A stretch of 64,000 nt of DNA from Rickettsiales bacterium (GTDB lineage Bacteria; Pseudomonadota; Alphaproteobacteria; Rickettsiales; JABIRX01), in the NCBI GenBank assembly GCA_965222515.1, contig CBDCUE010000006.1:1543-65542 (forward strand), given 5' to 3'. Shown piece after piece: positions 14,963 to 64,000 of this stretch; position 1 is the stretch's first letter; each line of letters opens with the position of its first letter. Both the position numbers and the translations under genes were made by a program. A model generated the notes under the pieces. The model made no database searches. It was not told the origin of the DNA and saw only the letters and a list, made by a program, of their open reading frames with translations.

Positions 14963-14969
14963 ATAAATT

Positions 14970-15910: not shown

Positions 15911-15958
15911 CTAAGGTAAAATAGGAAGAATAGATCCTACAAACCAGTTTTACCTTAG
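15911..15958 (+). promoter_or_regulatory. Stem-loop in the hemA 5' region
   Basis: CTAAGGTAAAA / TTTTACCTTAG 11-bp inverted repeat enclosing an inner TAGGA/TCCTA stem, ending 30 nt before the hemA ATG. Confidence 0.4.
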
Positions 15959-15987
15959 CATAATAACTGCTTCTTTACAAATAAAAA

Positions 15988-44648: not shown

Positions 44649-44756
44649 TTGGTATGTTCTTAAATCATCAATTGAATTTATTGCTATAAAATCATTCGCT
44701 AAACTGCTTTGATGAGTTATTATAAATGCTATAAAAATTAAAAATGCTTTTAACAT
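44649..44756 (-). pseudogene. 36-codon 5' stub of a paralogous secreted toxin-like gene, truncated by IS3
   Basis: MLKAFLIFIAFIITHQSSLANDFIAINSIDDLRTYQ aligns with MLKTFIIFITFLINTQLSFGNFIAINSIDTIGLYQ of 45556-46995, with a shared upstream TCTATCAAAATAAGAAAAGATAA motif. Confidence 0.82.
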
Positions 44757-44894
44757 TATTCTTTCTTTCTGTTTTTTTAAAATTTAACTTTTTTAGTATC
44801 TTTTATCTTTTCTTATTTTGATAGAGATTTTTTAATCTTTTTTAAAATCTTCTTTTTCAAATTCTTCTAAACAAAAATCTTCTTTTCATAGTCT

Positions 44895-45551: not shown

Positions 45552-45555
45552 AATT

Positions 45556-47080: not shown

Positions 47081-47439
47081 GGGAGCGTTAAATCTATTTG
47101 TTTTTAGTTTTCATATTCCTTCCAAACTTTGAAAGATTTTACTTGGTATTTGAGCCAATTATTTCTTTCAAAATCCTTAATGACTACAAAGACATGATCT
47201 AACAATCTGTCTTCATTTTCAAAGCTAATTTTATGTTTATACTATTTTAATTTTATAATTGACCTATAGCCTTCAATCTGCTCAGCATAAATTGCTTTTT
47301 TTAATAATCTGTTAGCTATGGCTAGCAAATCATTAAAAAAAACAATTTCTACTAAACATCTTTTTGGCTATAGGTCAATTATAAAATTAAAATAGTATTA
47401 GTAGCTTTTCTAATCTGACACTTAAGATTTTCTATTCCA
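47081..47439 (-). mobile_element. IS256-family 3' remnant interrupted by a MITE
   Basis: Removing the MITE and one TTA restores IENLKCQIRKATKHKISFENEDRLLDHVFVVIKDFERNNW...*; end GGGAGCGTTAAATC at 47081. Confidence 0.72.
47240..47397. mobile_element. 158-bp MITE, copy 2
   Basis: Perfect 32-bp TIR and TTA target duplication (47237-47239, 47398-47400); inverted relative to 10276-10433. Confidence 0.92.
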
Positions 47440-47627
47440 TAATATAAATGTTCTTGCTGTTTTTTGCACAAATTTCTTTAAAAATTCCTATTTCTAATAG
47501 ATTATTTTAAAATAATAAAATTATCAACTTCTATTATGTTTAAATTTATTTTAATAGATCTTTTATATAAAATTCCTTTTATTATTTTATCCTCAAATTA
47601 TCATTTTTTACCCATACTCACTTACTG

Positions 47628-48125
47628 CTATTTTGTCCAACCTATACAATCCAATATCTCTCCTGTATCTATGTCTATTAAATAATTAAAACCATTCTGT
47701 AATCCCGCACTAAATTCACATTTTGATAAATCTAAATTAGGCTCATCTATCTCTATTTCATGTTTATCTACCATTATTGCATATTCCTTAATAACTTTTC
47801 CATTTTCTTTTATTTCAATAGCCATTCCTACATATACACTATCTTCTTTATACCCCTTATGATTATATTCTGCTACTTGCCATAATAATTTTCCTGTCTG
47901 TTTGCTGTAGCAAAAGAGATTTTCTCTTACTCGTTCTTCAGGAGTGGCATCTCTTGGTGAAATATTTTCTATTTTTTCTCTTGCATAAAAAGCTAAATTT
48001 AACCAATTAACTAAAAAGATTATTCTATCGGGTAATTCTATATATGATAATATTCTACTTTTAAAATCTACCTTAAATTTACCAAACTTTGCTATACTTC
48101 TATTTTTATTTAATTTGATGCTCAT
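47628..48125 (-). CDS. Array putative immunity protein, copy 1
   Basis: 165 aa with LPDRII...NLFCYSKQTGKLLWQV...YLIDIDTGEIL..GWTK; protein identical to copy 5. Confidence 0.85.
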   Translation of the reverse strand: MSIKLNKNRSIAKFGKFKVDFKSRILSYIELPDRIIFLVNWLNLAFYAREKIENISPRDATPEERVRENLFCYSKQTGKLLWQVAEYNHKGYKEDSVYVGMAIEIKENGKVIKEYAIMVDKHEIEIDEPNLDLSKCEFSAGLQNGFNYLIDIDTGEILDCIGWTK

Positions 48126-48132
48126 ATAATTT

Positions 48133-48312
48133 TTATTGTAAAGGTTTTGTATTTAAATACCATTCAGGTTTTATTTCTTGCAATATCTCTGTCTGTAGTC
48201 CTTCTCCTTGTCCAAAACTATTACTCCCTGCTCTTCCTGTTCTTATCTCTCTATTTTTAGGCAATTTTACATCCGTTACCCATAATATAAATGTTCTTGC
48301 TGTTTTTTGCAC
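48133..48312 (-). pseudogene. Toxin-tail ORF (59 codons)
   Basis: GTG...WVTDVKLPKNREIRTGRAGSNSFGQGEGLQTEILQEIKPEWYLNTKPLQ*, ending 7 nt before the next ATG. Confidence 0.65.
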
Positions 48313-48470
48313 AGATTTCTTTAAAAATTCCTATTTCTAATAGATTATTTTAAAATAATAAAATTATCAACTTCTATTATGTTTAAATTTATTTTAATAG
48401 ATCTTTTATATAAAATTCCTTTTATTATTTTATCCTCAAATTATCATTTTTTACCCATACTCACTTACTG

Positions 48471-48968
48471 CTATTTTGTCCAACCTATACAATCCAATAT
48501 CTCTCCTGTATCTATGTCTATTAAATACTCAAAACCATTCTGTAATCCCGCACTAAATTCACATTTTGATAAATCTAAATTAGGCTTATCTATCTCTATT
48601 TCATGTTTATCTACCATTATTGCATATCTCTTCACAACTTTTCCATTTTCTTTTATTTCAATAGCCATTCCTACATATACACTATCTTCTTTATACCCCT
48701 TATGATTATATTCTGCTACTTGCCATAATAATTTTCCTGTCTGTTTGCTGTAGCAAAAGAGATTTTCTCTTACTCGTTCTTCAGGAGTGGCATCTCTTGG
48801 TGAAATATTTTCTATTTTTTCTCTTGCATAAAAAGCTAAATTTAACCAATTAACTAAAAAGATTATTCTATCGGGTAATTCTATATATGATAATATTCTA
48901 CTTTTAAAATCTACCTTAAATTTACCAAACTTTGCTATACTTCTATTTTTATTTAATTTGATGCTCAT
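48471..48968 (-). CDS. Array putative immunity protein, copy 2
   Basis: KSRILS / EDS / VKRY / FEY allele combination. Confidence 0.85.
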   Translation of the reverse strand: MSIKLNKNRSIAKFGKFKVDFKSRILSYIELPDRIIFLVNWLNLAFYAREKIENISPRDATPEERVRENLFCYSKQTGKLLWQVAEYNHKGYKEDSVYVGMAIEIKENGKVVKRYAIMVDKHEIEIDKPNLDLSKCEFSAGLQNGFEYLIDIDTGEILDCIGWTK

Positions 48969-48975
48969 ATAATTT

Positions 48976-49155
48976 TTATTGTAAAGGTTTTGTATTTAAA
49001 TACCATTTAGGTTCTATTTTTTGCAATATCTCTGTCTGTAGTCCTTCTCCTTGCCCAAAACTATTACTCCCTGCTCTTCCTGTTCTTATCTCTCTATTTT
49101 TAGGCAATTCTACATCCGTTACCCATAATATAAATGTTCTTGCTGTTTTTTGCAC
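48976..49155 (-). pseudogene. Toxin-tail ORF
   Basis: Variant DVE..NRE..LQKIEPKW. Confidence 0.6.
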
Positions 49156-49313
49156 AAATTTCTTTAAAAATTCCTATTTCTAATAGATTATTTTAAAATA
49201 ATAAAATTATCAACTTCTATTATGTTTAAATTTATTTTAATAGATCTTTTATATAAAATTCCTTTTATTATTTTATCCTCAAATTATCATTTTTTACCCA
49301 TACTCACTTACTG

Positions 49314-49811
49314 CTATTTTGTCCAACCTATACAATCCAATATCTCTCCTGTATCTATGTCTATTAAATACTCAAAACCATTATGTAATCCCGCACTAAA
49401 TTCACATTTTGATAAATCTAAATTAGGCTTATCTATCTCTATTTCATGTTTATCTACCATTATTGCATATTCCTTAATAACTTTTCCATTTTCTTTTATT
49501 TCAATACCCATTCCTACATATACACTTTTCACTTTATACCCCTTATGATTATATTCTGCTACTTGCCATAATAATTTTCCTGTCTGTTTGCTGTAGCAAA
49601 AGAGATTTTCTCTTACTCGTTCTTCAGGAGTGGCATCTCTTGGTGAAATATTTTCTATTTTTTCTCTTGCATAAAAAGCTAAATTTAACCAATTAACTAA
49701 AAAGATTATTCTATCGGGTAATTCTATATATGATAATATTCTACTTTTAAAATCTACCTTAAATTTACCAAACTTTGCTATACTTCTATTTTTATTTAAT
49801 TTGATGCTCAT
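49314..49811 (-). CDS. Array putative immunity protein, copy 3
   Basis: KSRILS / VKS / GIE / IKEY combination. Confidence 0.85.
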   Translation of the reverse strand: MSIKLNKNRSIAKFGKFKVDFKSRILSYIELPDRIIFLVNWLNLAFYAREKIENISPRDATPEERVRENLFCYSKQTGKLLWQVAEYNHKGYKVKSVYVGMGIEIKENGKVIKEYAIMVDKHEIEIDKPNLDLSKCEFSAGLHNGFEYLIDIDTGEILDCIGWTK

Positions 49812-49818
49812 ATAATTT

Positions 49819-49998
49819 TTATTGTAAAGGTTTTGTATTTAAATACCATTCAGATTTTATTTTTTGCAATATCTCTGTCTGTAGTCCTTCTCCTTGTCCA
49901 AAACTATTACTCCCTGCTCTTCCTGTTCTTATCTCTCTATTTTTAGGCAATTCTACATCCGTTACCCATAATATAAATGTTCTTGCTGTTTTTTGCAC
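49819..49998 (-). pseudogene. Toxin-tail ORF
   Basis: Variant DVE..NRE..LQKIKSEW. Confidence 0.6.
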
Positions 49999-50137
49999 AA
50001 ATTTCTTTAAAAATTCCTATTTCTAATAGATTATTTTAAAATAATAAAATTATCAACTTCTATTATGTTTAAATTTATTTTAATAGATCTTTTATATAAA
50101 ATTCCTTTTATTATTTTTTACCCATACTCACTTACTG

Positions 50138-50641
50138 CTATTTTGTCCAACCTATACAATCCAATATCTCTCCTGTATTTATGTCTATTAAATACTTAAA
50201 ACCATTCTGTAATCCCGCAATAAATTCACATTTTGATAAATCTAAATTAGGCTCATCTATCTCTATTTCATCTTTATCTACCATTATTGCATATCTCTTC
50301 ACAACTTTTCCATTTTCTTTTATATAAAATCTCATTCCTACATATACACTATCTTCTTTATACCCCTTATGATTATATTCTGCTACTTGCCATAATAATT
50401 TTCCTGTCTGTTTGCTGTAGCAAAAGAGATTTTCTCTTACTCGTTCTTCAGGAGTGGCTTCTCTTGGCAGAAGTTCCCTTCCTGCTATTTTTTCTCTTTC
50501 ATGAAAAGCTAAATTTAATGGATTAACTAAAAAAAATATTCTATCAGGTAATGCTATATATGATCTTATAGCAGTTTTAAAATCTACTTTAAATTTACCA
50601 AACTTTGCTATACTTCTATTTTTATTTAATTTGATGCTCAT
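50138..50641 (-). CDS. Array putative immunity protein, copy 4 (167 aa)
   Basis: KTAIRS / AGRELLPRE insertion allele / EDS / RFY. Confidence 0.85.
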   Translation of the reverse strand: MSIKLNKNRSIAKFGKFKVDFKTAIRSYIALPDRIFFLVNPLNLAFHEREKIAGRELLPREATPEERVRENLFCYSKQTGKLLWQVAEYNHKGYKEDSVYVGMRFYIKENGKVVKRYAIMVDKDEIEIDEPNLDLSKCEFIAGLQNGFKYLIDINTGEILDCIGWTK

Positions 50642-50648
50642 ATAATTT

Positions 50649-50828
50649 TTATTGTAAAGGTTTTGTATTTAAATACCATTCAGGTTTTATTTCGTCCAAT
50701 ATCTCTGTCTGTAGTCCTTCTCCTTGCCCAAAACTATTACTCCCTGCTCTTCCTGTTCTTATATCTCTATTTTTAGGCAATTTTACATCCGTTACCCATA
50801 ATATAAATGTTCTTGCTGTTTTTTGCAC
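50649..50828 (-). pseudogene. Toxin-tail ORF
   Basis: Variant DVK..NRD..LDEIKPEW. Confidence 0.6.
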
Positions 50829-50986
50829 AGATTTCTTTAAAAATTCCTATTTCTAATAGATTATTTTAAAATAATAAAATTATCAACTTCTATTATGTTT
50901 AAATTTATTTTAATAGATCTTTTATATAAAATTCCTTTTATTATTTTATCCTCAAATTATCATTTTTTACCCATACTCACTTACTG

Positions 50987-51484
50987 CTATTTTGTCCAAC
51001 CTATACAATCCAATATCTCTCCTGTATCTATGTCTATTAAATAATTAAAACCATTCTGTAATCCCGCACTAAATTCACATTTTGATAAATCTAAATTAGG
51101 CTCATCTATCTCTATTTCATGTTTATCTACCATTATTGCATATTCCTTAATAACTTTTCCATTTTCTTTTATTTCAATAGCCATTCCTACATATACACTA
51201 TCTTCTTTATACCCCTTATGATTATATTCTGCTACTTGCCATAATAATTTTCCTGTCTGTTTGCTGTAGCAAAAGAGATTTTCTCTTACTCGTTCTTCAG
51301 GAGTGGCATCTCTTGGTGAAATATTTTCTATTTTTTCTCTTGCATAAAAAGCTAAATTTAACCAATTAACTAAAAAGATTATTCTATCGGGTAATTCTAT
51401 ATATGATAATATTCTACTTTTAAAATCTACCTTAAATTTACCAAACTTTGCTATACTTCTATTTTTATTTAATTTGATGCTCAT
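50987..51484 (-). CDS. Array putative immunity protein, copy 5
   Basis: Protein identical to copy 1. Confidence 0.85.
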   Translation of the reverse strand: MSIKLNKNRSIAKFGKFKVDFKSRILSYIELPDRIIFLVNWLNLAFYAREKIENISPRDATPEERVRENLFCYSKQTGKLLWQVAEYNHKGYKEDSVYVGMAIEIKENGKVIKEYAIMVDKHEIEIDEPNLDLSKCEFSAGLQNGFNYLIDIDTGEILDCIGWTK

Positions 51485-51491
51485 ATAATTT

Positions 51492-51671
51492 TTATTGTAA
51501 AGGTTTTGTATTTAAATACCATTCAGGTTTTATTTCTTGCAATATCTCTGTCTGTAGTCCTTCTCCTTGTCCAAAACTATTACTCCCTGCTCTTCCTGTT
51601 CTTATCTCTCTATTTTTAGGCAATTTTACATCCGTTACCCATAATATAAATGTTCTTGCTGTTTTTTGCAC
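51492..51671 (-). pseudogene. Toxin-tail ORF
   Basis: Same peptide as 48133-48312. Confidence 0.6.
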
Positions 51672-51829
51672 AGATTTCTTTAAAAATTCCTATTTCTAAT
51701 AGATTATTTTAAAATAATAAAATTATCAACTTCTATTATGTTTAAATTTATTTTAATAGATCTTTTATATAAAATTCCTTTTATTATTTTATCCTCAAAT
51801 TATCATTTTTTACCCATACTCACTTACTG

Positions 51830-52327
51830 CTATTTTGTCCAACCTATACAATCCAATATCTCTCCTGTATCTATGTCTATTAAATACTCAAAACCATTCT
51901 GTAATCCCGCACTAAATTCACATTTTGATAAATCTAAATTAGGCTTATCTATCTCTATTTCATGTTTATCTACCATTATTGCATATCTCTTCACAACTTT
52001 TCCATTTTCTTTTATTTCAATAGCCATTCCTACATATACACTTTTCACTTTATACCCCTTATGATTATATTCTGCTACTTGCCATAATAATTTTCCTGTC
52101 TGTTTGCTGTAGCAAAAGAGATTTTCTCTTACTCGTTCTTCAGGAGTGGCATCTCTTGGTGAAATATTTTCTATTTTCTTTCTTGCATAATAAGCTAAAT
52201 TTAATGGACTAACTAAAAAGATTATTCTATCAGGTAATGCTATATATGATCTTATAGCAGTTTTAAAATCTACCTTAAATTTACCAAACTTTGCTATACT
52301 TCTATTTTTATTTAATTTGATGCTCAT
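51830..52327 (-). CDS. Array putative immunity protein, copy 6
   Basis: KTAIRS / SPL / VKS / VKRY. Confidence 0.85.
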   Translation of the reverse strand: MSIKLNKNRSIAKFGKFKVDFKTAIRSYIALPDRIIFLVSPLNLAYYARKKIENISPRDATPEERVRENLFCYSKQTGKLLWQVAEYNHKGYKVKSVYVGMAIEIKENGKVVKRYAIMVDKHEIEIDKPNLDLSKCEFSAGLQNGFEYLIDIDTGEILDCIGWTK

Positions 52328-52334
52328 ATAATTT

Positions 52335-52514
52335 TTATTGTAAAGGTTTTGTATTTAAATACCATTTAGATTCTATTTTTTGCAATATCTCTGTCTGTAG
52401 TCCTTCTCCTTGTCCAAAACTATTACTCCCTGCTCTTCCTGTTCTTATCTCTGTATTTTTAGGCAATTCTACATCCGTTACCCATAATATAAATGTTCTT
52501 GCTGTTTTTTGCAC
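52335..52514 (-). pseudogene. Toxin-tail ORF
   Basis: Variant DVE..NTE..LQKIESKW. Confidence 0.6.
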
Positions 52515-52672
52515 AGATTTCTTTAAAAATTCCTATTTCTAATAGATTATTTTAAAATAATAAAATTATCAACCTCTATTATGTTTAAATTTATTTTAAT
52601 AGATCTTTTATATAAAATTCCTTTTATTATTTTATCCTCAAATTATCATTTTTTACCCATACTCACTTACTG

Positions 52673-53170
52673 CTATTTTGTCCAACCTATACAATCCAAT
52701 ATCTCTCCTGTATTTATGTCTATTAAATACTCAAAACCATTCTGTAATCCCGCACTAAATTCACATTTTGATAAATCTAAATTAGGCTTATCTATCTCTA
52801 TTTCATGTTTATCTACCATTATTGCATATCTCTTCACAACTTTTCCATTTTCTTTTATTTCAATAGCCATTCCTACATATACACTTTTCACTTTATACCC
52901 CTTATGATTATATTCTGCTACTTGCCATAATAATTTTCCTGTCTGTTTGCTGTAGCAAAAGAGATTTTGTTCTACTTCTTCTTCAGGAGTGGCATCTCTT
53001 GGTGAAATATTTTCTATTTTTTCTCTTGCATAAAAAGCTAAATTAAACCAATTAACTAAAAAGATTATTCTATCAGGTAATTCTATATAAGATAATATTC
53101 TACTTTTAAAATCTACCTTAAATTTACCAAACTTTGCTATACTTCTATTTTTATTTAATTTGATGCTCAT
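52673..53170 (-). CDS. Array putative immunity protein, copy 7
   Basis: KSRILS / NWF / EEEVEQ / VKS. Confidence 0.85.
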   Translation of the reverse strand: MSIKLNKNRSIAKFGKFKVDFKSRILSYIELPDRIIFLVNWFNLAFYAREKIENISPRDATPEEEVEQNLFCYSKQTGKLLWQVAEYNHKGYKVKSVYVGMAIEIKENGKVVKRYAIMVDKHEIEIDKPNLDLSKCEFSAGLQNGFEYLIDINTGEILDCIGWTK

Positions 53171-53177
53171 ATAATTT

Positions 53178-53357
53178 TTATTGTAAAGGTTTTGTATTTA
53201 AATACCATTTAGGTTCTATTTCGTCCAATATCTCTGTCTGTAGTCCTTCTCCTTGTCCAAAACTATTACTCCCTGCTCTTCCTGTTCTTATCTCTCTATT
53301 TTTAGGCAATTCTACATCCGTTACCCATAATATAAATGTTCTTGCTGTTTTTTGCAC
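53178..53357 (-). pseudogene. Toxin-tail ORF
   Basis: Variant DVE..NRE..LDEIEPKW. Confidence 0.6.
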
Positions 53358-53515
53358 AGATTTCTTTAAAAATTCCTATTTCTAATAGATTATTTTAAAA
53401 TAATGAAATTATCAACTTCTATTATGTTTAAATTTATTTTAATAGATCTTTTATATAAAATTCCTTTTATTATTTTATCCTCAAATTATCATTTTTTACC
53501 CATACTCACTTACTG

Positions 53516-54013
53516 CTATTTTGTCCAACCTATACAATCCAATATCTCTCCTGTATTTATGTCTATTAAATACTTAAAACCATTCTGTAATCCCGCAATA
53601 AATTCACATTTTGATAAATCTAAATTAGGCTCATCTATCTCTATTTCATCTTTATCTACCATTATTGCATATCTCTTCACAACTTTTCCATTTTCTTTTA
53701 TATAAAATCTCATTCCTACATATACACTTTTCACTTTATACCCCTTATGATTATATTCTGCTACTTGCCATAATAATTTTCCTGTCTGTTTGCTGTAGCA
53801 AAAGAGATTTTGATCTACTTCTTCTTCAGGAGTGGCATCTCTTGGTGAAATATTTTCTATTTTCTTTCTTGCATAATAAGCTAAATTAAACCAATTAACT
53901 AAAAAGATTATTCTATCGGGTAATTCTATATATGATTTTATAGCAGTTTTAAAATCTACTTTAAATTTACCAAACTTTGCTATACTTCTATTTTTATTTA
54001 ATTTGATGTTCAT
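53516..54013 (-). CDS. Array putative immunity protein, copy 8
   Basis: KTAIKS / NWF / EEEVDQ / VKS / RFY. Confidence 0.85.
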   Translation of the reverse strand: MNIKLNKNRSIAKFGKFKVDFKTAIKSYIELPDRIIFLVNWFNLAYYARKKIENISPRDATPEEEVDQNLFCYSKQTGKLLWQVAEYNHKGYKVKSVYVGMRFYIKENGKVVKRYAIMVDKDEIEIDEPNLDLSKCEFIAGLQNGFKYLIDINTGEILDCIGWTK

Positions 54014-54020
54014 ATAATTT

Positions 54021-54200
54021 TTATTGTAAAGGTTTTGTATTTAAATACCATTTAGGTTTTATTTCGTCCAATATCTCTGTCTGTAGTCCTTCTCCTTGTC
54101 CAAAACTATTACTCCCTGCTCTTCCTGTTCTTATCTCTGTATTTTTAGGCAATTTTACATCCGTTACCCATAATATAAATGTTCTTGCTGTTTTTTGCAC
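54021..54200 (-). pseudogene. Toxin-tail ORF
   Basis: Variant DVK..NTE..LDEIKPKW. Confidence 0.6.
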
Positions 54201-54358
54201 AAATTTCTTTAAAAATTCCTATTTCTAATAGATTATTTTAAAATAATAAAATTATCAACTTCTATTATGTTTAAATTTATTTTAATAGATCTTTTATATA
54301 AAATTCCTTTTATTATTTTATCCTCAAATTATCATTTTTTACCCATACTCACTTACTG

Positions 54359-54856
54359 CTATTTTGTCCAACCTATACAATCCAATATCTCTCCTGTATT
54401 TATGTCTATTAAATACTTAAAACCATTCTGTAATCCCGCACTAAATTCACATTTTGATAAATCTAAATTAGGCTCATCTATCTCTATTTCATGTTTATCT
54501 ACCATTATTGCATATCTCTTCACAACTTTTCCATTTTCTTTTATTTCAATAGCCATTCCTACATATACACTATCTTCTTTATACCCCTTATGATTATATT
54601 CTGCTACTTGCCATAATAATTTTCCTGTCTGTTTGCTGTAGCAAAAGAGATTTTCTCTTACTCGTTCTTCAGGAGTGGCATCTCTTGGTGAAATATTTTC
54701 TATTTTCTTTCTTGCATAATAAGCTAAATTTAATGGACTAACTAAAAAGATTATTCTATCAGGTAATGCTATATATGATCTTATAGCAGTTTTAAAATCT
54801 ACCTTAAATTTACCAAACTTTGCTATACTTCTATTTTTATTTAATTTGATGCTCAT
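54359..54856 (-). CDS. Array putative immunity protein, copy 9
   Basis: KTAIRS / SPL / EDS / FKY; protein identical to copy 11. Confidence 0.85.
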   Translation of the reverse strand: MSIKLNKNRSIAKFGKFKVDFKTAIRSYIALPDRIIFLVSPLNLAYYARKKIENISPRDATPEERVRENLFCYSKQTGKLLWQVAEYNHKGYKEDSVYVGMAIEIKENGKVVKRYAIMVDKHEIEIDEPNLDLSKCEFSAGLQNGFKYLIDINTGEILDCIGWTK

Positions 54857-54863
54857 ATAATTT

Positions 54864-55043
54864 TTATTGTAAAGGTTTTGTATTTAAATACCATTTAGGT
54901 TCTATTTCTTGCAATATCTCTGTCTGTAGTCCTTCTCCTTGTTCAAAACTATTACTCCCTGCTCTTCCTGTTCTTATCTCTCTATTTTTAGGCAATTCTA
55001 CATCCGTTACCCATAATATAAATGTTCTTGCTGTTTTTTGCAC
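54864..55043 (-). pseudogene. Toxin-tail ORF
   Basis: Variant DVE..NRE..SFEQG..LQEIEPKW. Confidence 0.6.
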
Positions 55044-55686
55044 AGATTTCTTTAAAAATTCCTATTTCTAATAGATTATTTTAAAATAATAAAATTATCA
55101 ACTTCTATTATGTTTAAATTTATTTTAATAGATCTTTTATATAAAATTCCTTTTATTATTTTATCCTCAAATTATCATTTTTTACCCATACTCACTTACT
55201 GCTATTTTGTCCAACCTATACAATCCAATATCTCTCCTGTATCTATGTCTATTAAATAATTAAAACCATTCTGTAATCCCGCACTAAATTCACATTTTGA
55301 TAAATCTAAATTAGGCTTATCTATCTCTATTTCATGTTTATCTACCATTATTGCATATCTCTTCACAACTTTTTCATTTTCTTTTATTTCAATAGCCATT
55401 CCTACATATACACTTTTCACTTTATACCCCTTATGATTATATTCTGCTACTTGCCATAATAATTTTCCTGTCTGTTTGCTGTAGCAAAAGAGATTTTGAT
55501 CTACTTCTTCTTCAGGAGTGGCATCTCTTGGTGAAATATTTTCTATTTTTTCTCTTGCATAAAAAGCTAAATTAAACCAATTAACTAAAAAGATTATTCT
55601 ATCAGGTAATTCTATATAAGATAATATTCTACTTTTAAAATCTACCTTAAATTTACCAAACTTTGCTATACTTCTATTTTTATTTA

Positions 55687-57351
55687 GAGTCTGCTGAATT
55701 AGATAATATTTTCCAATAAAAAATTAATTCTTTCCAAAAGACATTTTTTTAAATTTTAAAAATATATTTTCAAATTATTTTTTAATCCATTTTTAGTTTT
55801 TTATTTAATTTTTAATGTAATATTTGTATTAAACCTCTCTTAATGCTTTAAATAAGTTAAAACTAACCATAGCTATACTAGTTTGAATGGCAGCTCCATT
55901 CATAGTTTTCAACACTATTTTATTTAATGTGTAATCTTTTTTTAAATTTCCTATTACCCCCTCAACTCTAGACCTTGATTTCCTCAATTTCCTTTTTTCT
56001 AATTTTTGCTTAGCTGTAGATTTTCCTTGATTCTTAAGACTATGTTTTATATCAAAACTCTTTAATAAAGCTTTATTATCAAACGAAGAATAACCATCAT
56101 CTATCAGAACCTTCTTCGGCAATCTCTCAAATCTATCTTGATGATTTGCTAAACTATTCTTTAATTCTAACTTCTCATTAAATGCCCTATGCTCTACTTT
56201 ATCACTAAACACATAACCATCTGTTAAAGCTATATGTGCCTTTGCTCCAAATTCTGTTTTTTTACCTCCTTCCTTGCCTCTTTTGATTGGTCTTACAAAT
56301 GGTTGGTCAAAACTTATTATTCTGCCTGGAATACTTGTAACCTTTTCTTTGTATTTTCTTTGTTGTTGCCTAAAAATCTCTTTTCCTACTACTAACTTTT
56401 TTTCTATTTCCTTTATTAACCCTTGTAAACCCACCTCCTCAATCAATCCTAACTGAAAATTACCAGACGATAATTTCTTCTTTGCTCCCTTTATTATTGC
56501 TACCAATTGATTAATATTTCTATTAGTAAAATTCAACATTTTCCTAGTTGCCTTATTTATTACTTTCTTGTTCTTCTGCTTCTTTTTTGCAAAATCTAAA
56601 TATACTTTCTTTGCTTTTCTTTTGTAAGTTCTTATCTTCTCTTCTATTTTGAACTTTTTTTTTAATATATCTATTTGCTTAATTGCATAACTTCTTACAG
56701 TATTAAGCAATTTTACATCATTTGGATATTCTATTTTACTCTCAAACACTGTACCATCAAGCAACAATTCTTTTCCTTTGACAAACCTTTTATCCTTTAG
56801 CACCTCTAATATTTCTGATTCAAATTTTAAAAAATACTCTGCTCCTAATTTATTTCTTCTTTTTGTTAATAAGCTAGGATCCATCACTTTTGTTATCTTG
56901 CTTACAAAAGTATCATAACCACAAAAATATTGAAAATATGGATTTTCATAAAAATATTCTAATATCTCAACATCACTCAAACCTAATCTTACTTTACCGA
57001 TAAGCAAACCTAGCACTAATTTAGCTGATTTTACCACTCCCAATCTTTTAGGATCAAAATATTTATCATGAAGTGCAATCAAATTATCCCAAGGAACTAG
57101 CTCTGATAATTTTATCCATCTGTTGTTTTCGTCTAACTTACCTCCAAAAGGCATCATATCTGCAAATAATGGTAATGTTCTCATAGCAATGTCTAAAAAA
57201 AATTATATTTTTTTCTAAAAAAGTGCAAAGGTTTTCTCGTCATTATCTTCAAACCTTTGCATTTTTACTCAAAAATCTAACATAAATATACCACTCAAAC
57301 CCTTATAATACAACCCTTTTCCTTGCTTTTTTTACCTAATTCAGCAGACTC
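55687..57351 (-). mobile_element. IS5-like element, 1665 bp, 6-bp target duplication
   Basis: 16-bp perfect IR GAGTCTGCTGAATTAG / CTAATTCAGCAGACTC; TATTTA duplicated at 55681-55686 and 57352-57357. Confidence 0.93.
55829..57184 (-). CDS. IS5-like DDE transposase
   Basis: NRWIKLSELVPWD, ENPYFQYFCG, LLDGTV....I.YPND, EFGAK, LIDDGY, RSRVEGVIG. Confidence 0.9.
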   Translation of the reverse strand: MRTLPLFADMMPFGGKLDENNRWIKLSELVPWDNLIALHDKYFDPKRLGVVKSAKLVLGLLIGKVRLGLSDVEILEYFYENPYFQYFCGYDTFVSKITKVMDPSLLTKRRNKLGAEYFLKFESEILEVLKDKRFVKGKELLLDGTVFESKIEYPNDVKLLNTVRSYAIKQIDILKKKFKIEEKIRTYKRKAKKVYLDFAKKKQKNKKVINKATRKMLNFTNRNINQLVAIIKGAKKKLSSGNFQLGLIEEVGLQGLIKEIEKKLVVGKEIFRQQQRKYKEKVTSIPGRIISFDQPFVRPIKRGKEGGKKTEFGAKAHIALTDGYVFSDKVEHRAFNEKLELKNSLANHQDRFERLPKKVLIDDGYSSFDNKALLKSFDIKHSLKNQGKSTAKQKLEKRKLRKSRSRVEGVIGNLKKDYTLNKIVLKTMNGAAIQTSIAMVSFNLFKALREV

Positions 57352-57377
57352 TATTTAATTTGATGCTCATATAATTT

Positions 57378-57557
57378 TTATTGTAAAGGTTTTGTATTTA
57401 AATACCATTTAGATTCTATTTTTTGCAATATCTCTGTCTGTAGTCCTTCTCCTTGTCCAAAACTATTACTCCCTGCTCTTCCTGTTCTTATATCTCTATT
57501 TTTAGGCAATTCTACATCCGTTACCCATAATATAAATGTTCTTGCTGTTTTTTGCAC
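57378..57557 (-). pseudogene. Toxin-tail ORF
   Basis: Variant DVE..NRD..LQKIESKW. Confidence 0.6.
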
Positions 57558-57715
57558 AAATTTCTTTAAAAATTCCTATTTCTAATAGATTATTTTAAAA
57601 TAATAAAATTATCAACTTCTATTATGTTTAAATTTATTTTAATAGATCTTTTATATAAAATTCCTTTTATTATTTTATCCTCAAATTATCATTTTTTACC
57701 CATACTCACTTACTG

Positions 57716-58213
57716 CTATTTTGTCCAACCTATACAATCCAATATCTCTCCTGTATTTATGTCTATTAAATACTTAAAACCATTCTGTAATCCCGCACTA
57801 AATTCACATTTTGATAAATCTAAATTAGGCTCATCTATCTCTATTTCATGTTTATCTACCATTATTGCATATCTCTTCACAACTTTTCCATTTTCTTTTA
57901 TTTCAATAGCCATTCCTACATATACACTATCTTCTTTATACCCCTTATGATTATATTCTGCTACTTGCCATAATAATTTTCCTGTCTGTTTGCTGTAGCA
58001 AAAGAGATTTTCTCTTACTCGTTCTTCAGGAGTGGCATCTCTTGGTGAAATATTTTCTATTTTCTTTCTTGCATAATAAGCTAAATTTAATGGACTAACT
58101 AAAAAGATTATTCTATCAGGTAATGCTATATATGATCTTATAGCAGTTTTAAAATCTACCTTAAATTTACCAAACTTTGCTATACTTCTATTTTTATTTA
58201 ATTTGATGCTCAT
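57716..58213 (-). CDS. Array putative immunity protein, copy 11
   Basis: Protein identical to copy 9. Confidence 0.85.
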   Translation of the reverse strand: MSIKLNKNRSIAKFGKFKVDFKTAIRSYIALPDRIIFLVSPLNLAYYARKKIENISPRDATPEERVRENLFCYSKQTGKLLWQVAEYNHKGYKEDSVYVGMAIEIKENGKVVKRYAIMVDKHEIEIDEPNLDLSKCEFSAGLQNGFKYLIDINTGEILDCIGWTK

Positions 58214-58220
58214 ATAATTT

Positions 58221-58400
58221 TTATTGTAAAGGTTTTGTATTTAAATACCATTTAGGTTCTATTTCTTGCAATATCTCTGTCTGTAGTCCTTCTCCTTGCC
58301 CAAAACTATTACTCCCTGCTCTTCCTGTTCTTATCTCTGTATTTTTAGGCAATTTTACATCCGTTACCCATAATATAAATGTTCTTGCTGTTTTTTGCAC
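58221..58400 (-). pseudogene. Toxin-tail ORF
   Basis: Variant DVK..NTE..LQEIEPKW. Confidence 0.6.
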
Positions 58401-58558
58401 AAATTTCTTTAAAAATTCCTATTTCTAATAGATTATTTTAAAATAATAAAATTATCAACTTCTATTATGTTTAAATTTATTTTAATAGATCTTTTATATA
58501 AAATTCCTTTTATTATTTTATCCTCAAATTATCATTTTTTACCCATACTCACTTACTG

Positions 58559-59047
58559 CTATTTTGTCCAACCTATACAATCCAATATCTCTCCTGTATT
58601 TATGTCTATTAAATACTTAAAACCATTCTGTAATCCCGCAATAAATTCACATTTTGATAAATCTAAATTAGGCTCATCTATCTCTATTTCATCTTTATCT
58701 ACCATTATTGCATATCTCTTCACAACTTTTCCATTTTCTTTTATATAAAATCTCATTCCTACATATACACTTTTCACTTTATACCCCTTATGATTATATT
58801 CTGCTACTTGCCATAATAATTTTCCTGTCTGTTTGCTGTAGCAAAAGAGATTTTGACTTATTTCGTATAAATTAGTTGCATGATACCAATTTAATAAAAT
58901 TATTATTCTATCTGGTAACTCTATTAAATATTTAATTTCATTAGGAGCTTTTATAACTAAATTATTATCTAATTCTATATTAGTATTTACAAAAGTCTCT
59001 TCCCCAGCAGATAAAATCTTCTTTGTTTTATGTAATTTATATCCCAT
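58559..59047 (-). CDS. Array putative immunity protein, copy 12, divergent N-terminal half
   Basis: MGYKLHKTKK...IELPDRIIILLNWYHATNLYEISQNLF, then the same C-terminal half as copy 8. Confidence 0.85.
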   Translation of the reverse strand: MGYKLHKTKKILSAGEETFVNTNIELDNNLVIKAPNEIKYLIELPDRIIILLNWYHATNLYEISQNLFCYSKQTGKLLWQVAEYNHKGYKVKSVYVGMRFYIKENGKVVKRYAIMVDKDEIEIDEPNLDLSKCEFIAGLQNGFKYLIDINTGEILDCIGWTK

Positions 59048-59049
59048 TT

Positions 59050-59238
59050 TTATTTTATTTTAATTGTATTTTTAAACCAATTCGAATTAATGTCTTCTCT
59101 AGGTACCAATATCTCTGTCTGTAGTCCTTCTCCTTGTCCAAAACTATTACTCCCTGCTCTTCCTGTTCTTATCTCTGTATTTTTAGGCAATTTTACATCC
59201 GTTACCCATAATATAAATGTTCTTGCTGTTTTTTGCAC
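59050..59238 (-). pseudogene. Toxin-tail ORF with divergent tip
   Basis: ...GLQTEILVPREDINSNWFKNTIKIK*. Confidence 0.65.
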
Positions 59239-59396
59239 AGATTTCTTTAAAAATTCCTATTTCTAATAGATTATTTTAAAATAATGAAATTATCAACTTC
59301 TATTATGTTTAAATTTATTTTAATAGATCTTTTATATAAAATTCCTTTTATTATTTTATCCTCAAATTATCATTTTTTACCCATACTCACTTACTG

Positions 59397-59894
59397 CTAT
59401 TTTGTCCAACCTATACAATCCAATATCTCTCCTGTATCTATGTCTATTAAATAATTAAAACCATTCTGTAATCCCGCACTAAATTCACATTTTGATAAAT
59501 CTAAATTAGGCTCATCTATCTCTATTTCATGTTTATCTACCATTATTTCATATTCCTTAATAACTTTTCCATTTTCTTTTATTTCAATACCCATTCCTAC
59601 ATATACACTTTTCACTTTATACCCCTTATGATTATATTCTGCTACTTGCCATAATAATTTTCCTGTCTGTTTGCTGTAGCAAAAGAGATTTTCTCTTACT
59701 CGTTCTTCAGGAGTGGCATCTCTTGGTGAAATATTTTCTATTTTCTTTCTTGCATAATAAGCTAAATTTAATGGACTAACTAAAAAGATTATTCTATCAG
59801 GTAATGCTATATATGATCTTATAGCAGTTTTAAAATCTACCTTAAATTTACCAAACTTTGCTATACTTCTATTTTTATTTAATTTGATGCTCAT
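59397..59894 (-). CDS. Array putative immunity protein, copy 13
   Basis: KTAIRS / SPL / VKS / GIE / IKEYE. Confidence 0.85.
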   Translation of the reverse strand: MSIKLNKNRSIAKFGKFKVDFKTAIRSYIALPDRIIFLVSPLNLAYYARKKIENISPRDATPEERVRENLFCYSKQTGKLLWQVAEYNHKGYKVKSVYVGMGIEIKENGKVIKEYEIMVDKHEIEIDEPNLDLSKCEFSAGLQNGFNYLIDIDTGEILDCIGWTK

Positions 59895-59901
59895 ATAATT
59901 T

Positions 59902-60081
59902 TTATTGTAAAGGTTTTGTATTTAAATACCATTCAGGTTTTTTTTTGTCCAATATCTCTGTCTGTAGCCCTTCTCCTTGTCCAAAATTATTACTCCCTGC
60001 TCTTCCTGTTCTTATCTCTGTATTTTTAGGCAATTTTACATCCGTTACCCATAATATAAATGTTCTTGCTGTTTTTTGCAC
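59902..60081 (-). pseudogene. Toxin-tail ORF
   Basis: Variant DVK..NTE..GSNNF..LDKKKPEW. Confidence 0.6.
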
Positions 60082-60239
60082 AAATTTCTTTAAAAATTCC
60101 TATTTCTAATAGATTATTTTAAAATAATAAAATTATCAACTTCTATTATGTTTAAATTTATTTTAATAGATCTTTTATATAAAATTCCTTTTATTATTTT
60201 ATCCTCAAATTATCATTTTTTACCCATACTCACTTACTG

Positions 60240-60743
60240 CTATTTTGTCCAACCTATACAATCCAATATCTCTCCTGTATCTATGTCTATTAAATAATTA
60301 AAACCATTCTGTAATCCCGCACTAAATTCACATTTTGATAAATCTAAATTAGGCTCATCTATCTCTATTTCATGTTTATCTACCATTATTGCATATTCCT
60401 TAATAACTTTTCCATTTTCTTTTATTTCAATACCCATTCCTACATATACACTTTTCACTTTATACCCCTTATGATTATATTCTGCTACTTGCCATAATAA
60501 TTTTCCTGTCTGTTTGCTGTAGCAAAAGAGATTTTCTCTTACTCGTTCTTCAGGAGTGGCTTCCTCTGGCATAAGTTCTCTTCCTGCTATTTTTTCTCTT
60601 TCATGAAAAGCTAAATTTAATGGATTAACTAAAAAGATTATTCTATCGGGTAATGCTATATATGATCTTATAGCAGTTTTAAAATCTACCTTAAATTTAC
60701 CAAACTTTGCTATACTTCTATTTTTATTTAATTTGATGCTCAT
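60240..60743 (-). CDS. Array putative immunity protein, copy 14 (167 aa)
   Basis: KTAIRS / AGRELMPEE / VKS / GIE. Confidence 0.85.
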   Translation of the reverse strand: MSIKLNKNRSIAKFGKFKVDFKTAIRSYIALPDRIIFLVNPLNLAFHEREKIAGRELMPEEATPEERVRENLFCYSKQTGKLLWQVAEYNHKGYKVKSVYVGMGIEIKENGKVIKEYAIMVDKHEIEIDEPNLDLSKCEFSAGLQNGFNYLIDIDTGEILDCIGWTK

Positions 60744-60750
60744 ATAATTT

Positions 60751-60930
60751 TTATTGTAAAGGTTTTGTATTTAAATACCATTCAGATTTTATTTTGTCCA
60801 ATATCTCTGTCTGTAGTCCTTCTCCTTGTCCAAAACTATTACTCCCTGCTCTTCCTGTTCTTATATCTCTATTTTTAGGCAATTTTACATCCGTTACCCA
60901 TAATATAAATGTTCTTGCTGTTTTTTGCAC
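60751..60930 (-). pseudogene. Toxin-tail ORF
   Basis: Variant DVK..NRD..LDKIKSEW. Confidence 0.6.
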
Positions 60931-61088
60931 AGATTTCTTTAAAAATTCCTATTTCTAATAGATTATTTTAAAATAATAAAATTATCAACTTCTATTATGT
61001 TTAAATTTATTTTAATAGATCTTTTATATAAAATTCCTTTTATTATTTTATCCTCAAATTATCATTTTTTACCCATACTCACTTACTG

Positions 61089-61494
61089 CTATTTTGTCCA
61101 ACCTATACAATCCAATATCTCTCCTGTATCTATGTCTATTAAATAATTAAAACCATTCTGTAATCCCGCACTAAATTCACATTTTGATAAATCTAAATTA
61201 GGCTCATCTATCTCTATTTCATGTTTATCTACCATTATTTCATATTCCTTAATAACTTTTCCATTTTCTTTTATTTCAATACCCATTCCTACATATACAC
61301 TATCTTCTTTATACCCCTTATGATTATATTCTGCTACTTGCCATAATAATTTTCCTGTCTGTTTGCTGTAGCAAAAGAGATTTTGACTTATTTCGTATAA
61401 ATTAGTTGCATGATACCAATTTAATAAAATTATTATTCTATCTGGTAACTCTATTAAATATTTAATTTCATTAGGAGCTTTTATAACTAAATTA
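61089..61494 (-). pseudogene. Array putative immunity gene copy 15 (copy-12-type N-half), 5'-truncated by IS5
   Basis: Homology to 58559-59047 stops at NLVIKAPNE, where the IS end GTCGTCCC begins; the ORF-track start at 61580 lies inside the IS. Confidence 0.85.
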
Positions 61495-62986
61495 GTCGTC
61501 CCTAAAAAACTATAAAAAGCCTTGCAGTATAAGGTTTTTTTTGTATAATTTGCATAGTAAAAACACAAGCTTATTACCAATAACTCTTAAAACCTTGCAA
61601 AAATGTTACACAAAACTCACCAAACAGGAAATGATATGGATATGTTCAGAAATGAATTAGTAAATATCATAAATATGAAACATAAATTAGTAATATTGTC
61701 AAAATTAGTAGATTGGAGAAGCATGGAAAAGAAGTTTTCTATAAAATATAGTAATTTGGGAAGAGGAGGACTACCTATAAGATTAATGTGTGGATTATTG
61801 ATGTTAAAAGAAATAGAAAAGCAATCAGATGAAAAGATATGTGAGCTTTGGGTAGAGAATCCATATTATCAATATTTTTGTGGAAGTAGATATTTTGAGC
61901 ATAAGTTACCAACAGTTCCAGAGAATTTGGTGTATTTTAGAAAAAGAATAGGAGAAGAAGGGATGGAATATTTGTTTTCAGAAACAATAGAAATAGCAAA
62001 AAATACAAAAGTTTTAAAATCAGCTGATTTTAAAAGAGTAACAGTAGATAGCACAGTTCAAGAAAAAGCAATAACTTATCCTACAGATACTAAGCTGTGC
62101 CATAAAGCAAGGGAGAGTTTGGTAAAGTTGGCAGAAGCAGAGGGTATAAAATTGAGGCAGAATTATAAAATAGTTGGTAAAAAGAGTCTTTTTATGTCAG
62201 CGAGATACAGTATGTCAAGAAAGGGTAGAAAAGCAAAAGCAGAACAGAAAAAAGTAAAGAATTATTTGGGTAGAGTAATAAGGGATATTGATAATAAGAA
62301 AGGAGATTTGAAAAACAATAGTAAATTATTTCAAGCATTGCTAAGAGCAAAGTTAATTTACAATCAGCAAAGAACGGATAAGAATAAGATTTATTCATGG
62401 CATGAAGATGTGAGTTGCATAAGTAAGGGAAAAGCTCACAAGAAATATGAGTTTGGTTGTAAAGTAGGTTTTGTAGTAAGTTCTAGGTCAAATTTTGTTT
62501 TAGGAGCAAAATCATTTGATAACAATCCGTATGATGGACATACATTAAAATCTAATTTGAAACAAGCAGAAAGGTTGAGTGGCAAGAGTTTTAGGAAGGT
62601 TTATGTTGATCAAGGCTATAAAGATCATGGAATAAAAGATAAAAATGTTATTGTGGCAAGAACAAGAAAGAAAACATTATCTATTTTGCAAAAGAAATAT
62701 CAAAAACGAAGAAATGCGATAGAGCCAGTGATAGGTCATATTAAAAATGATGGCTCAAGGGGGGCAAGATGTTATCTTAAAGGAAAAATGGGCGATAATA
62801 TGAATGGCAATAGCAACTGCTATGGGATTTAACTTAAGAAAGCTGTTAAACTGCATAGATAGTTATCTTTTTGCCAAAATCCAAATGGTAATTTTTGTAA
62901 TAAAAAGTATTTTTTTAAGAAAAAACACACTTTTTATTATTTAATAATTGTTAATTTAACTAAAAATGTAATTATTTAGGTGCTAC
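61495..62986 (+). mobile_element. IS5-family element with non-matching flanks
   Basis: Ends TA|GTCGTCCCTAAA and TTTAGGTGCTAC|TA (compare GTCGCACCTAAA at 42588). The left flank is array gene; the right flank is IS3 sequence equivalent to 44473. Confidence 0.88.
61603..62832 (+). CDS. IS5-family transposase, frameshifted near the C-terminus
   Basis: ENPYYQYFCG, VDSTVQEKAITYPTD, KYEFGCKV, GNPYDGHTL-like NNPYDGHTL, VDQGY; extra G near 62805 relative to the 42712-43017 copy. Confidence 0.9.
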   Translation: MLHKTHQTGNDMDMFRNELVNIINMKHKLVILSKLVDWRSMEKKFSIKYSNLGRGGLPIRLMCGLLMLKEIEKQSDEKICELWVENPYYQYFCGSRYFEHKLPTVPENLVYFRKRIGEEGMEYLFSETIEIAKNTKVLKSADFKRVTVDSTVQEKAITYPTDTKLCHKARESLVKLAEAEGIKLRQNYKIVGKKSLFMSARYSMSRKGRKAKAEQKKVKNYLGRVIRDIDNKKGDLKNNSKLFQALLRAKLIYNQQRTDKNKIYSWHEDVSCISKGKAHKKYEFGCKVGFVVSSRSNFVLGAKSFDNNPYDGHTLKSNLKQAERLSGKSFRKVYVDQGYKDHGIKDKNVIVARTRKKTLSILQKKYQKRRNAIEPVIGHIKNDGSRGARCYLKGKMGDNMNGNSNCYGI

Positions 62987-63595
62987 TATCTAGTTTTTTA
63001 AATGATAAAATTAGCAATAATTTTATCATTATTTATGTAATTTTATCTCATTATTTGATTTAAAATTACAAAGGTTTTAATGGTTTTTTTTAGGAATAAA
63101 TTAAAGGCAAATTCTATCTTAAATTTTTCTAAAACCTGTCCAGTCAAAAGGGCTCACCATACTTGGTATGTTCTTAAATCATCAATTGAATTTATTGCTA
63201 TAAAATCATTCGCTAAACTGCTTTGATGAGTTATTATAAATGCTATAAAAATTAAAAATGCTTTTAACATTATTCTTTCTTTCTGTTTTTTTAAAATTTA
63301 ACTTTTTTAGTATCTTTTATCTTTTCTTATTTTGATAGAGATTTTTTAATCTTTTTTAAAATCTTTCCAAAAATCTTCTTTTTCAAATTCTTCTAAACAA
63401 AAATCTTCTTTTCATAGTCTTTAGCCCTTATAAATATTCTTACTTGGATCTTTTAATCCATCTCCTGTATCACAATTATACCAATCTCCCTTAAGGGCTT
63501 TGCAAGATTTCTTATATTCTTCTATCTCTTTCTTGCTCATATCCTCCATATCTTCTTCATCCTCCTCTCCATCATAATACCAATAGGCTGATGGA
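62987..63595. repeat. Near-identical second copy of 44473-45069 (IS3 right end, toxin stub, intergenic, 3' end of the DUF596-like gene)
   Basis: Direct alignment with a few substitutions and 12 extra nt near 63365. Confidence 0.93.
63163..63270 (-). pseudogene. 36-codon 5' stub of toxin-like gene, copy 2
   Basis: Identical to 44649-44756, with the same IS3 junction. Confidence 0.82.
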
Positions 63596-64000
63596 GGGAG
63601 TCCATAAAAATAAAAATCTAAATGAGTATCAAAACTTACCTTTTGTTTTGTTCCGCAATATTTTTCATCTCCTTCTTTAGGAAAACTTTTATCAAAATAA
63701 GCAATCACATCTTCTGTTTTTGTTTTTTCATCAAATTTTACATAGTCTTTTGTATTTTCACGATAATCCTTTGGTAATTCATCCATTAAAGCTTCTCTGC
63801 TTGTGTATCCTTTTCCCTTAAACCTCAATAACCCCTTCCTCATATAATATTCTATTAATTCCAAAAATATCTGCTTCTTTTCGCTTAGAGGGAGGTTTAA
63901 AGTTTTTGCTGGATATATTGTATTATCCCATATATCTATTGGTTTTACAAATGGATACTCCATATCATCCTCAAGATTTTTTAAATCATATTGATCTAAA
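63421..64000 (-). CDS. Second DUF596-like putative immunity protein (5' end outside window)
   Basis: Frame is open to the window edge (LDQYDLKNLEDDMEY aligns with LEEYEVDKLEDIMKE of 44895-45551); shares FLELIEYYMRKGLLRF and a near-identical C-terminus. Confidence 0.65.
   Translation of the reverse strand, partial: LDQYDLKNLEDDMEYPFVKPIDIWDNTIYPAKTLNLPLSEKKQIFLELIEYYMRKGLLRFKGKGYTSREALMDELPKDYRENTKDYVKFDEKTKTEDVIAYFDKSFPKEGDEKYCGTKQKVSFDTHLDFYFYGLPPSAYWYYDGEEDEEDMEDMSKKEIEEYKKSCKALKGDWYNCDTGDGLKDPSKNIYKG

Follow-up and report, generated by a model that had tools for sequence, protein, structure and literature searches.

A mosaic tandem array of predicted DUF7957-type immunity genes with relic NADase-like toxin tails, probably diversified by gene conversion

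Introduction

In CDI and Maf orphan modules, a toxin 3' piece and an immunity gene are repeated downstream of a toxin locus, and homologous arms permit exchange. The co-oriented orphan immunity genes of rAID arrays belong to diverse families, are accompanied by a tyrosine recombinase and conserved intergenic motifs, diverge from their cognate genes and protect against incoming effectors. Homogeneous polyimmunity loci are an established concept (Zhang et al. 2012; PMC3482391) and were proposed to pre-empt toxins from non-kin. Orphan immunity genes also occur downstream of Rhs NADases (PMC10539506).

The DNA analysed here (the window) is a stretch of 64,000 nucleotides from a Rickettsiales bacterium (assembly GCA_965222515.1, contig CBDCUE010000006.1, positions 1,543 to 65,542). 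With 15 tandem genes of the predicted DUF7957 type, its array is a homogeneous polyimmunity locus as defined in PMC3482391. Like the loci described there, it consists of tandem paralogues of one immunity family, adjoins mobile elements and lacks a matching toxin set. Unlike them, its copies are recent mosaic duplicates of a single 843-bp unit, each of which keeps a toxin 3' stub, and DUF7957 is absent from the immunity families listed in that paper.

The toxin side resembles the TNT/Tse6/Tne2/Rhs1-CT NADases (6XTD, 6B12, 4ZV0; PMC10539506) in its predicted fold. As in those systems, the family is found as a C-terminal domain on Rhs-like, PT-TG or TPS proteins, with the immunity gene directly after it. 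It differs in that its immunity family shows no sequence relationship to any of the PDB chains searched and that the window keeps just the last 48 toxin residues. The repeated toxin 3' piece, the immunity gene and the homologous arms allowing exchange recall the CDI, Rhs and MafB orphan modules (Rhs: PMC10539506), and the array also resembles the orphan immunity genes found downstream of Rhs NADases. Classical orphans, however, carry a complete toxin domain with upstream homology to a resident full-length gene, whereas the window holds one third of the domain and one artificial junction. The array does not show the features of a classical orphan cassette, since it has neither a complete toxin domain nor a resident toxin. 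The likeness to rAID lies in the co-oriented array of orphan immunity genes. Unlike rAID, the window has one immunity family and an alphaproteobacterial host, and only IS5-family and IS3-like mobile elements were identified in it. No rAID-type recombinase was seen among the larger array neighbours scanned with Pfam, which comprised two DDE-type transposases and proteins without matches.

Structure of the tandem array

The array and the insertion elements within and beside it are listed below. The units were numbered from the high-coordinate end (U01) to U15. For the unit alignment, the 15 units were cut out after the 1665-bp insertion sequence (IS) had been removed from U06.

47436 to 61494, minus strand: 15 tandem units, each about 843 bp long, and a partial copy at the end (from anchor spacing, unit alignment and HMM matches)
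47437 to 47627, minus strand: terminal partial repeat after U15, consisting of spacer and VQKTARTFILW; homology ends at the ILW/VTDV boundary
55687 to 57351, minus strand: IS of 1665 bp with a 451-aa DUF772/DDE transposase, in codon 6-7 of the U06 immunity gene (17-bp inverted repeats, TAAATA target duplication)
61495 to 62986 (ends approximate), plus strand: IS5-family element with its transposase at 61603-62832 (Pfam DUF772 and DDE_Tnp_1; tblastn matches to IS5 transposases; junction at 61494/61495)

The anchors of the array are spaced 843 bp apart. Each unit contains a 158-nt spacer, a 59-aa chimeric ORF and an immunity gene of the DUF7957 type (165-aa ORF), and the copies are 86-100% identical to one another. 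The immunity ORF is intact in 13 of the 15 units and interrupted or truncated by an IS in the other two. The spacer of U13 (49314-50137) lacks 19 nt that are found in all other units. On the plus strand, ORFs of 100-108 aa (57624-57950 and equivalents) run antisense to the immunity genes in most units; by eye, these were judged to be chance frames in AT-rich repeats. A promoter and terminator scan gave no signal above that of shuffled sequence, and no Rfam or tRNA match was obtained.

The repeat runs 191 nt past U15 and ends at the ILW/VTDV boundary, exactly where the toxin homology (VTDV...) would start. This indicates a repeat unit in which the final 48 codons of the toxin are followed by the immunity gene and by 191 nt of downstream flank; the 59-aa ORF then arises as a chimera across the tandem-duplication junction. 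The first 11 codons of the ORF are former downstream flank, indicating that the stubs are products of tandem duplication. For the same reason, the 59-aa ORF was rejected as a small gene in its own right. The stubs are relics of one tandem duplication and not independent toxin cassettes.

The upstream end of the array was removed by the IS5-family element, which truncates U01. A full-length toxin gene may therefore once have headed the array.

In a word-indexed search of 5.8 billion proteins, the stub and immunity families were found on three contigs, among them the window's own contig of 66,453 bp, as 9 stub clusters and 14 immunity clusters. The proteins retrieved by this search were exclusively stubs of 59-62 aa and proteins of 162-167 aa.

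Relic status and predicted identity of the toxin stubs

In exhaustive HMMER searches with a stub profile, ORF residues 12-59 aligned at the very C-terminal end of longer proteins, and PT-TG domains or Rhs-type motifs are present in some of these. The profile of that C-terminal domain retrieved 148 relatives; several are named filamentous haemagglutinin in their source records, and one is named DUF4237 (= TNT). The matches of the toxin family to Pfam TNT and Ntox10 were sub-threshold only, and a PDB sequence search with the toxin profile found no relative. Pfam and NCBIfam scans of the stub and both immunity types gave no usable match (the Pfam set scanned was without PF25857).

An AF2 model of one family member, P0089, rather than of a window stub, had a pLDDT of 91. 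Its best Foldseek matches were Rhs1-CT of Serratia (6XTD_A) and Tne2 (6B12_A), with a TM score of 0.62, a probability of 1.0 and E = 4-5e-3, followed by fungal NADases and Tse6. The matches to 6XTD and 6B12 indicate that the toxin family is a TNT/Tne2/Rhs1-like domain. From this model, the stub family is assigned to the TNT/Tne2/Rhs1-CT-like NADase domains with an ART-like palm fold and is predicted to act as an NAD(P)+ glycohydrolase.

The window stubs comprise the last strands of this domain, including the G-x-G-x-Q-x-E motif, and what is called the tip below is the short helix and final strand after the motif. The family toxin HMM matched all 14 stubs (E = 1e-9 to 1e-13). No complete toxin domain was found in the window: the HMM matched only at its positions 126-174 (~49 of 174), in the 14 stubs and nowhere else. 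Likewise, a full-length toxin with the stub tail was absent from 5.8 billion proteins (word-indexed), from 1.84 billion representatives and from the called proteins of the three genomes carrying the array family. What had been described as a toxin from the sequence alone is only a relic, made by the duplication junction, in which 48 codons are left of an NADase domain of roughly 120 aa.

Predicted immunity genes of the DUF7957 type

In about 70 genomes, the gene next after the toxin-family domain encodes a DUF7957 (PF25857) protein of 112-122 aa. The profile of these downstream proteins aligned with the immunity family of the window over almost the full length (hhalign 97.2-97.4%, E = 1e-11 to 3e-11). 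The DUF7957-like profile was built from 70 ORFs of 100-135 aa, and the HMM of the downstream genes matched 15/15 of the array immunity ORFs; a precomputed PF25857 match exists for P0023, a relative of the array proteins. At 77 of 80 GTDB loci, the start of an ORF of at least 80 aa lies in the range from 38 nt before the toxin stop to 117 nt after it, mostly within about 20 nt, and DUF7957 is annotated directly 3' of the toxin domain at loci L001 and L002. The immunity genes of the window start 7 or 2 nt after the toxin stub. Judged by these profile matches, the window proteins are of the DUF7957 type with two lineage-specific insertions, and an immunity role is predicted for them.

L001 (ENA scaffold_2967_c1, 6001-12312) is a conventional version of the window's system. 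It encodes a TPS-domain (CdiA-like) protein that ends in the same NADase family, and the next gene is a DUF7957 gene of 141 aa. Further downstream, L001 has a Pfam-TNT protein as well as an orphan pair, encoded on the other strand and made up of a 103-aa toxin domain and a 121-aa DUF7957 gene.

No experimental paper on DUF7957 was found in the literature. The window immunity protein had no relative in a GTDB scan, and its family had none in a PDB sequence search. The DUF7957 profile matched only PQQ-like propeller repeats in the PDB, and the family shows PQQ-like propeller-blade motifs. The AF2 model of the immunity protein was poor (pLDDT 53).

The divergent block of U04 and U01

One unit, U04, differs abruptly from the others across the junction of the stub and the immunity gene. 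Its parts, and the immunity gene of U01, are as follows.

58559 to 59396, minus strand: U04, the unit under study, 838 bp (unit alignment)
59050 to 59238, minus strand: 62-aa ORF of U04; codons 1-11 (MQKTARTFILW) are former downstream flank and codons 12-62 are the NADase-like toxin tail with the variant tip (ORF list, profile alignment)
59107 to 59205, minus strand: left recombination arm, 99 nt, encoding VTDVKLPKN.EIRTGRAGSNSFGQGEGLQTEIL, the conserved last toxin-domain strands with G-x-G-x-Q-x-E; near-identical in all units and aligning to the GGGxQxE region of the family
58861 to 59106, minus strand: divergent block, 246 nt, running from the 18 aa of the variant tip and their stop codon across the gap of 2 nt into about the first 63 codons of the variant immunity gene (breakpoint mapping)
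58559 to 59047, minus strand: U04 immunity gene, 162 aa, with the variant N-half and a C-half nearly identical to that of U08 (DUF7957 HMM, E = 5e-9)
58559 to 58860, minus strand: right arm, with the conserved core of the immunity gene (NLFCYSKQTGKLLWQVAEYNHKGYK...) and a C-half that has polymorphic patches of its own (unit alignment)
61089 to 61494, minus strand: U01 immunity gene, its 5' end cut by the IS; U04-type N-half on a C-half closest to those of U11 and U15 (alignment)

The sequence-only reading had described a junction-spanning exchange in U04, and its anatomy was borne out by the ORF list and the alignment of the 15 units. The toxin ORF equals that of the other units through GLQTEIL and then continues with VPREDINSNWFKNTIKIK, compared with, for example, QEIEPKWYLNTKPLQ in a standard unit. 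In U04, the stub and the ATG of the immunity gene are 2 nt apart (59048-59049), compared with 7 nt in standard units (e.g. 58214-58220). The immunity protein starts with MGYKLHKTKK...YHATNLYEIS and rejoins the family at QNLFCYSK, as had been read; the Q of QNLF is common only to standard units of the EVDQ/EVEQ type (U06, U08 and U09), and the remaining units have ENLF. The length of the block, put at ~230 bp in that reading, is 246 nt by alignment, the outermost bases absent from every standard unit being 59106 and 58861.

Inside the block, U04 differs from the standard units at 168-185 positions per about 300 columns, with 55% identity at aligned bases plus indels. Outside the block, the differences amount to 2-5/290 columns on the left and 2-20/300 on the right. 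The discontinuity at the block edges is far beyond chance. So sharp a drop in identity, from about 99% to 55%, favours the import of a diverged allele by recombination over divergence in place.

The same N-half was reported to be joined to a different C-half in U01, and this holds: U01 is identical to U04 from 61494 (58964 in U04) to the end of the N-half and then differs at 18 sites. All 18 sites lie within known polymorphic patches of the C-half.

Apart from an insertion of 3 aa, the variant tip conforms to the family pattern ..I...W[FY].NT..I. The variant N-half keeps YLIELPDRII and is without the loop/helix of roughly 18 aa that the standard units have; in this it is like the canonical DUF7957 proteins with a short loop, and the standard type is like the members with a long loop. 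An origin of the variant block from unrelated sequence was considered and rejected, as it aligns to the family in both genes. On these alignments, the block of U04 and U01 is a homologous, diverged version of the standard sequence in both genes.

The variant N-half was found on at least four C-half haplotypes in three genomes: P0025 (= U04), P0023, P0024 and P0026. P0026, from another genome, corresponds to U01 in intact form. Upstream of the variant tip, the alleles NREIR, NTEIR and VMDV are found. Variant tips and intact variant immunity genes are equal in number on every one of the three contigs. The four C-halves, the varied upstream alleles and the matching counts together indicate that the flanks act as recombination arms. 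The claim of a block that spans the gene junction and acts as a single unit between recombining arms is supported for the variant type, which occurs on at least four C-half and several upstream backgrounds. The simplest reason for the block of U04 to stay whole is that it is too diverged internally from the standard units for crossovers.

Mosaicism of the standard units

Polymorphism and recombination were counted in the 13 standard units. The 158-nt spacer has 3 polymorphic sites. The 183-nt stub has 14 (12 nonsynonymous and 2 synonymous), and the 498-nt immunity gene has 64 (nonsynonymous to synonymous, 54:12). The four-gamete test failed for 1132/1953 informative site pairs, a PHI-like permutation test gave p < 0.0005, and the minimum number of recombination events (Rm) was at least 18.

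Between tip and N-half, 142 of 192 site pairs were incompatible by the four-gamete test, and the tip QKIESKW occurs on two N-half types. Tip and N-half alleles are almost freely reassorted in the standard units, indicating that they are not generally inherited as one module. The conserved ~100-nt junction segment of these units is itself a crossover zone. The earlier proposal that tip and N-half travel together therefore does not extend to the array in general. Nor is the C-half shared, as had been supposed; it carries many polymorphic patches of its own, mostly amino-acid-changing.

The variation in tip codons 45-50 is entirely nonsynonymous and often charge-swapping. Such variation in relic tips is unlike that of a long-dead pseudogene and points either to repeated import from live toxin genes or to some function of the stub.

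Tip and immunity N-half as a possible contact surface

Covariation was examined in 70 cognate toxin/immunity pairs extracted from the 80 GTDB loci. In this crude test, which is not corrected for phylogeny, tip similarity correlated with the immunity N-half at a Spearman rho of 0.39 and with the C-half at 0.44 (70 pairs), and the partial correlations controlling for the toxin core were 0.08 and 0.12, respectively. The rho between toxin tail length and immunity head length was 0.02.

The structure of Rhs1-CT with RhsI1 places the active-site groove along beta5 and beta6, and the cavity-lining elements listed for Rhs1-CT (6XTD) exclude alpha5 and the C-terminal beta7 (PMC10539506). We take alpha5 and beta7 to be the counterparts of the tip. 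Three unrelated families of NADase immunity proteins all insert a basic loop that plugs the active site (PMC10539506).

It is unlikely that tip and immunity N-half form a contact surface and are kept together, between the recombination arms, as a co-adapted, exchangeable specificity cassette. Several features would fit such a cassette. The junction-spanning block is intact on four C-half and several upstream backgrounds in three genomes according to the per-contig counts, the variant N-half loses a loop of roughly 18 aa while the tip gains 3 aa, and the amino-acid-changing, often charge-reversing differences in tip codons 45-50 are of the kind often seen in interface residues of live toxins. 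The resemblance of this variation to interface variation inherited from live toxins is what keeps the cassette among the candidate readings. Against it stand the free reassortment of tip and N-half alleles in the 13 standard units (142/192 incompatible), a C-half polymorphism equal to that of the N-half and the lack of family-wide coupling of tip and N-half among the 70 cognate pairs. In addition, the putative tip equivalent in Rhs1-CT (alpha5/beta7) lies outside the listed lining of the active site, which is where the known NADase immunity proteins plug their targets, and the array holds no functional toxin through which selection could act on the pairing. The role of tip and N-half as interacting surfaces is unproven and weakly disfavoured. 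If it were true, cognate pairs could be predicted from the locus by a simple rule; the evidence so far is not in its favour.

Origin and possible role of the array

The observed anatomy, homologies, duplication junction, mosaicism and breakpoints are probably best explained by a homogeneous polyimmunity array that was diversified by gene conversion, with the U04 block as an imported diverged allele. One ancestral segment, made up of the last 48 toxin codons, a DUF7957-type immunity gene and 191 nt of downstream flank, would have been tandemly amplified to at least 15 copies. The 59-aa ORFs would then be chimeric relics without most of the toxin domain and not deployable toxins. Gene conversion and unequal crossing-over would have reshuffled the copies into a combinatorial set of immunity alleles, which most likely protects against variant NADase toxins from competitors. 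The block of U04 and U01 is the most diverged allele class, with a toxin tail and immunity head that are roughly 45% diverged. Its most likely source is another toxin-immunity locus of this family, from which recombination would have brought it in, with one crossover in the region coding for the conserved catalytic motif (GLQTEIL) and the other in the conserved immunity core (NLFCYSKQTGKLLWQ). The near-absence of internal homology would keep the block intact, and the toxin tip may be a passenger.

Two other readings were considered. The units could be a cassette store for toxin switching, of the CDI, Rhs or Maf orphan type, which donates tip and immunity segments to a full-length toxin gene upstream or elsewhere. 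Such exchange of orphan toxin domains and immunity genes is documented for Rhs NADases (PMC10539506), the 99 nt of conserved toxin coding sequence in each unit could act as a homology arm, and the IS truncation upstream means that an ancestral full-length gene may have been lost. A store of this kind is nevertheless improbable, as a full-length toxin with the tail is absent from the window, from the called proteins of the three genomes and from the 1.84 billion representatives; furthermore, the stubs hold just the last third of the domain, and the single duplication junction common to all of them argues for amplification and not for independent cassettes. A purely non-adaptive origin seems very unlikely as well. 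On this view, a repeat in an IS-rich, AT-rich genome would be in decay, its copies kept alike by concerted evolution or amplified for gene dosage only, and the block would be a neutral conversion tract. Two units are already disrupted by IS insertions, the promoter and terminator signal is not above chance and the family is confined to three contigs, all of which would suit such decay. Neutral decay is hard to reconcile with the finding that, for all their 64 polymorphic sites and several in-frame indels, 13/13 immunity ORFs without an IS have stayed intact. It also does not match the patchy, mostly amino-acid-changing variation beside an almost invariant spacer or the retention of the array in three genomes.

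The diversified polyimmunity array might be taken one step further, to a combinatorial immunity library that also records past encounters. Gene conversion would then capture tail and head blocks from live foreign loci, the tail and the N-terminal blade of the immunity protein would be co-adapted contacts, and shuffling with the C-half patches would outpace point mutation in the generation of new specificities. We regard this extended reading as doubtful.

The instructive features of the locus are the amplification of a single unit, the toxin-tail fossils and the combinatorial shuffling. The array is an unusually clean natural example of how immunity repertoires against polymorphic toxins may diversify, by 15-fold amplification and then patch-by-patch shuffling, and its toxin stubs are fossils of the tails of the cognate toxins. 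The analysis also links the uncharacterised DUF7957 to a predicted TNT/Tne2-like NADase domain that is weakly recognised by Pfam. With one N-half on four C-halves and one tip on different N-halves, the array provides natural chimeras for mapping DUF7957 specificity.

Genomic surroundings of the array

The window encodes RpoB/RpoC, DnaG, RecA, a CcrM-type methyltransferase, 5-aminolevulinate synthase and an alpha-type AddB, which point to an alphaproteobacterial host with a GC content of 27-30%. Among 15 billion proteins clustered at 90% identity, the RpoB stands alone, and from the regions 1722-10208 and 10449-17187 the AT-rich host looks poorly sampled.

Just downstream of the array (44895-46995, minus strand) are the genes for a secreted-looking protein of 479 aa, whose N-terminus resembles a signal peptide, and, after it, a protein of 218 aa. 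Upstream of the array, the 218-aa protein has a paralogue of 180 aa (63421-63963, minus strand); the two are 55% identical overall and nearly identical over the last ~70 residues. The 479-, 218- and 180-aa proteins had no match in Pfam, NCBIfam or the PDB. As judged from the sequence, the 479-aa and 218-aa proteins may form a second toxin/immunity-like pair with a mosaic immunity gene.

A direct repeat of 0.6 kb (44473-45069 and 62987-63595, 97.5% identical) brackets the array and the IS, and it could mediate deletion or transfer of the array. A partial copy of a related transposase, a fragment at 42712-43017, lies about 4 kb below the array, and IS3-like ORFs were recognised by eye at 43210-44326.
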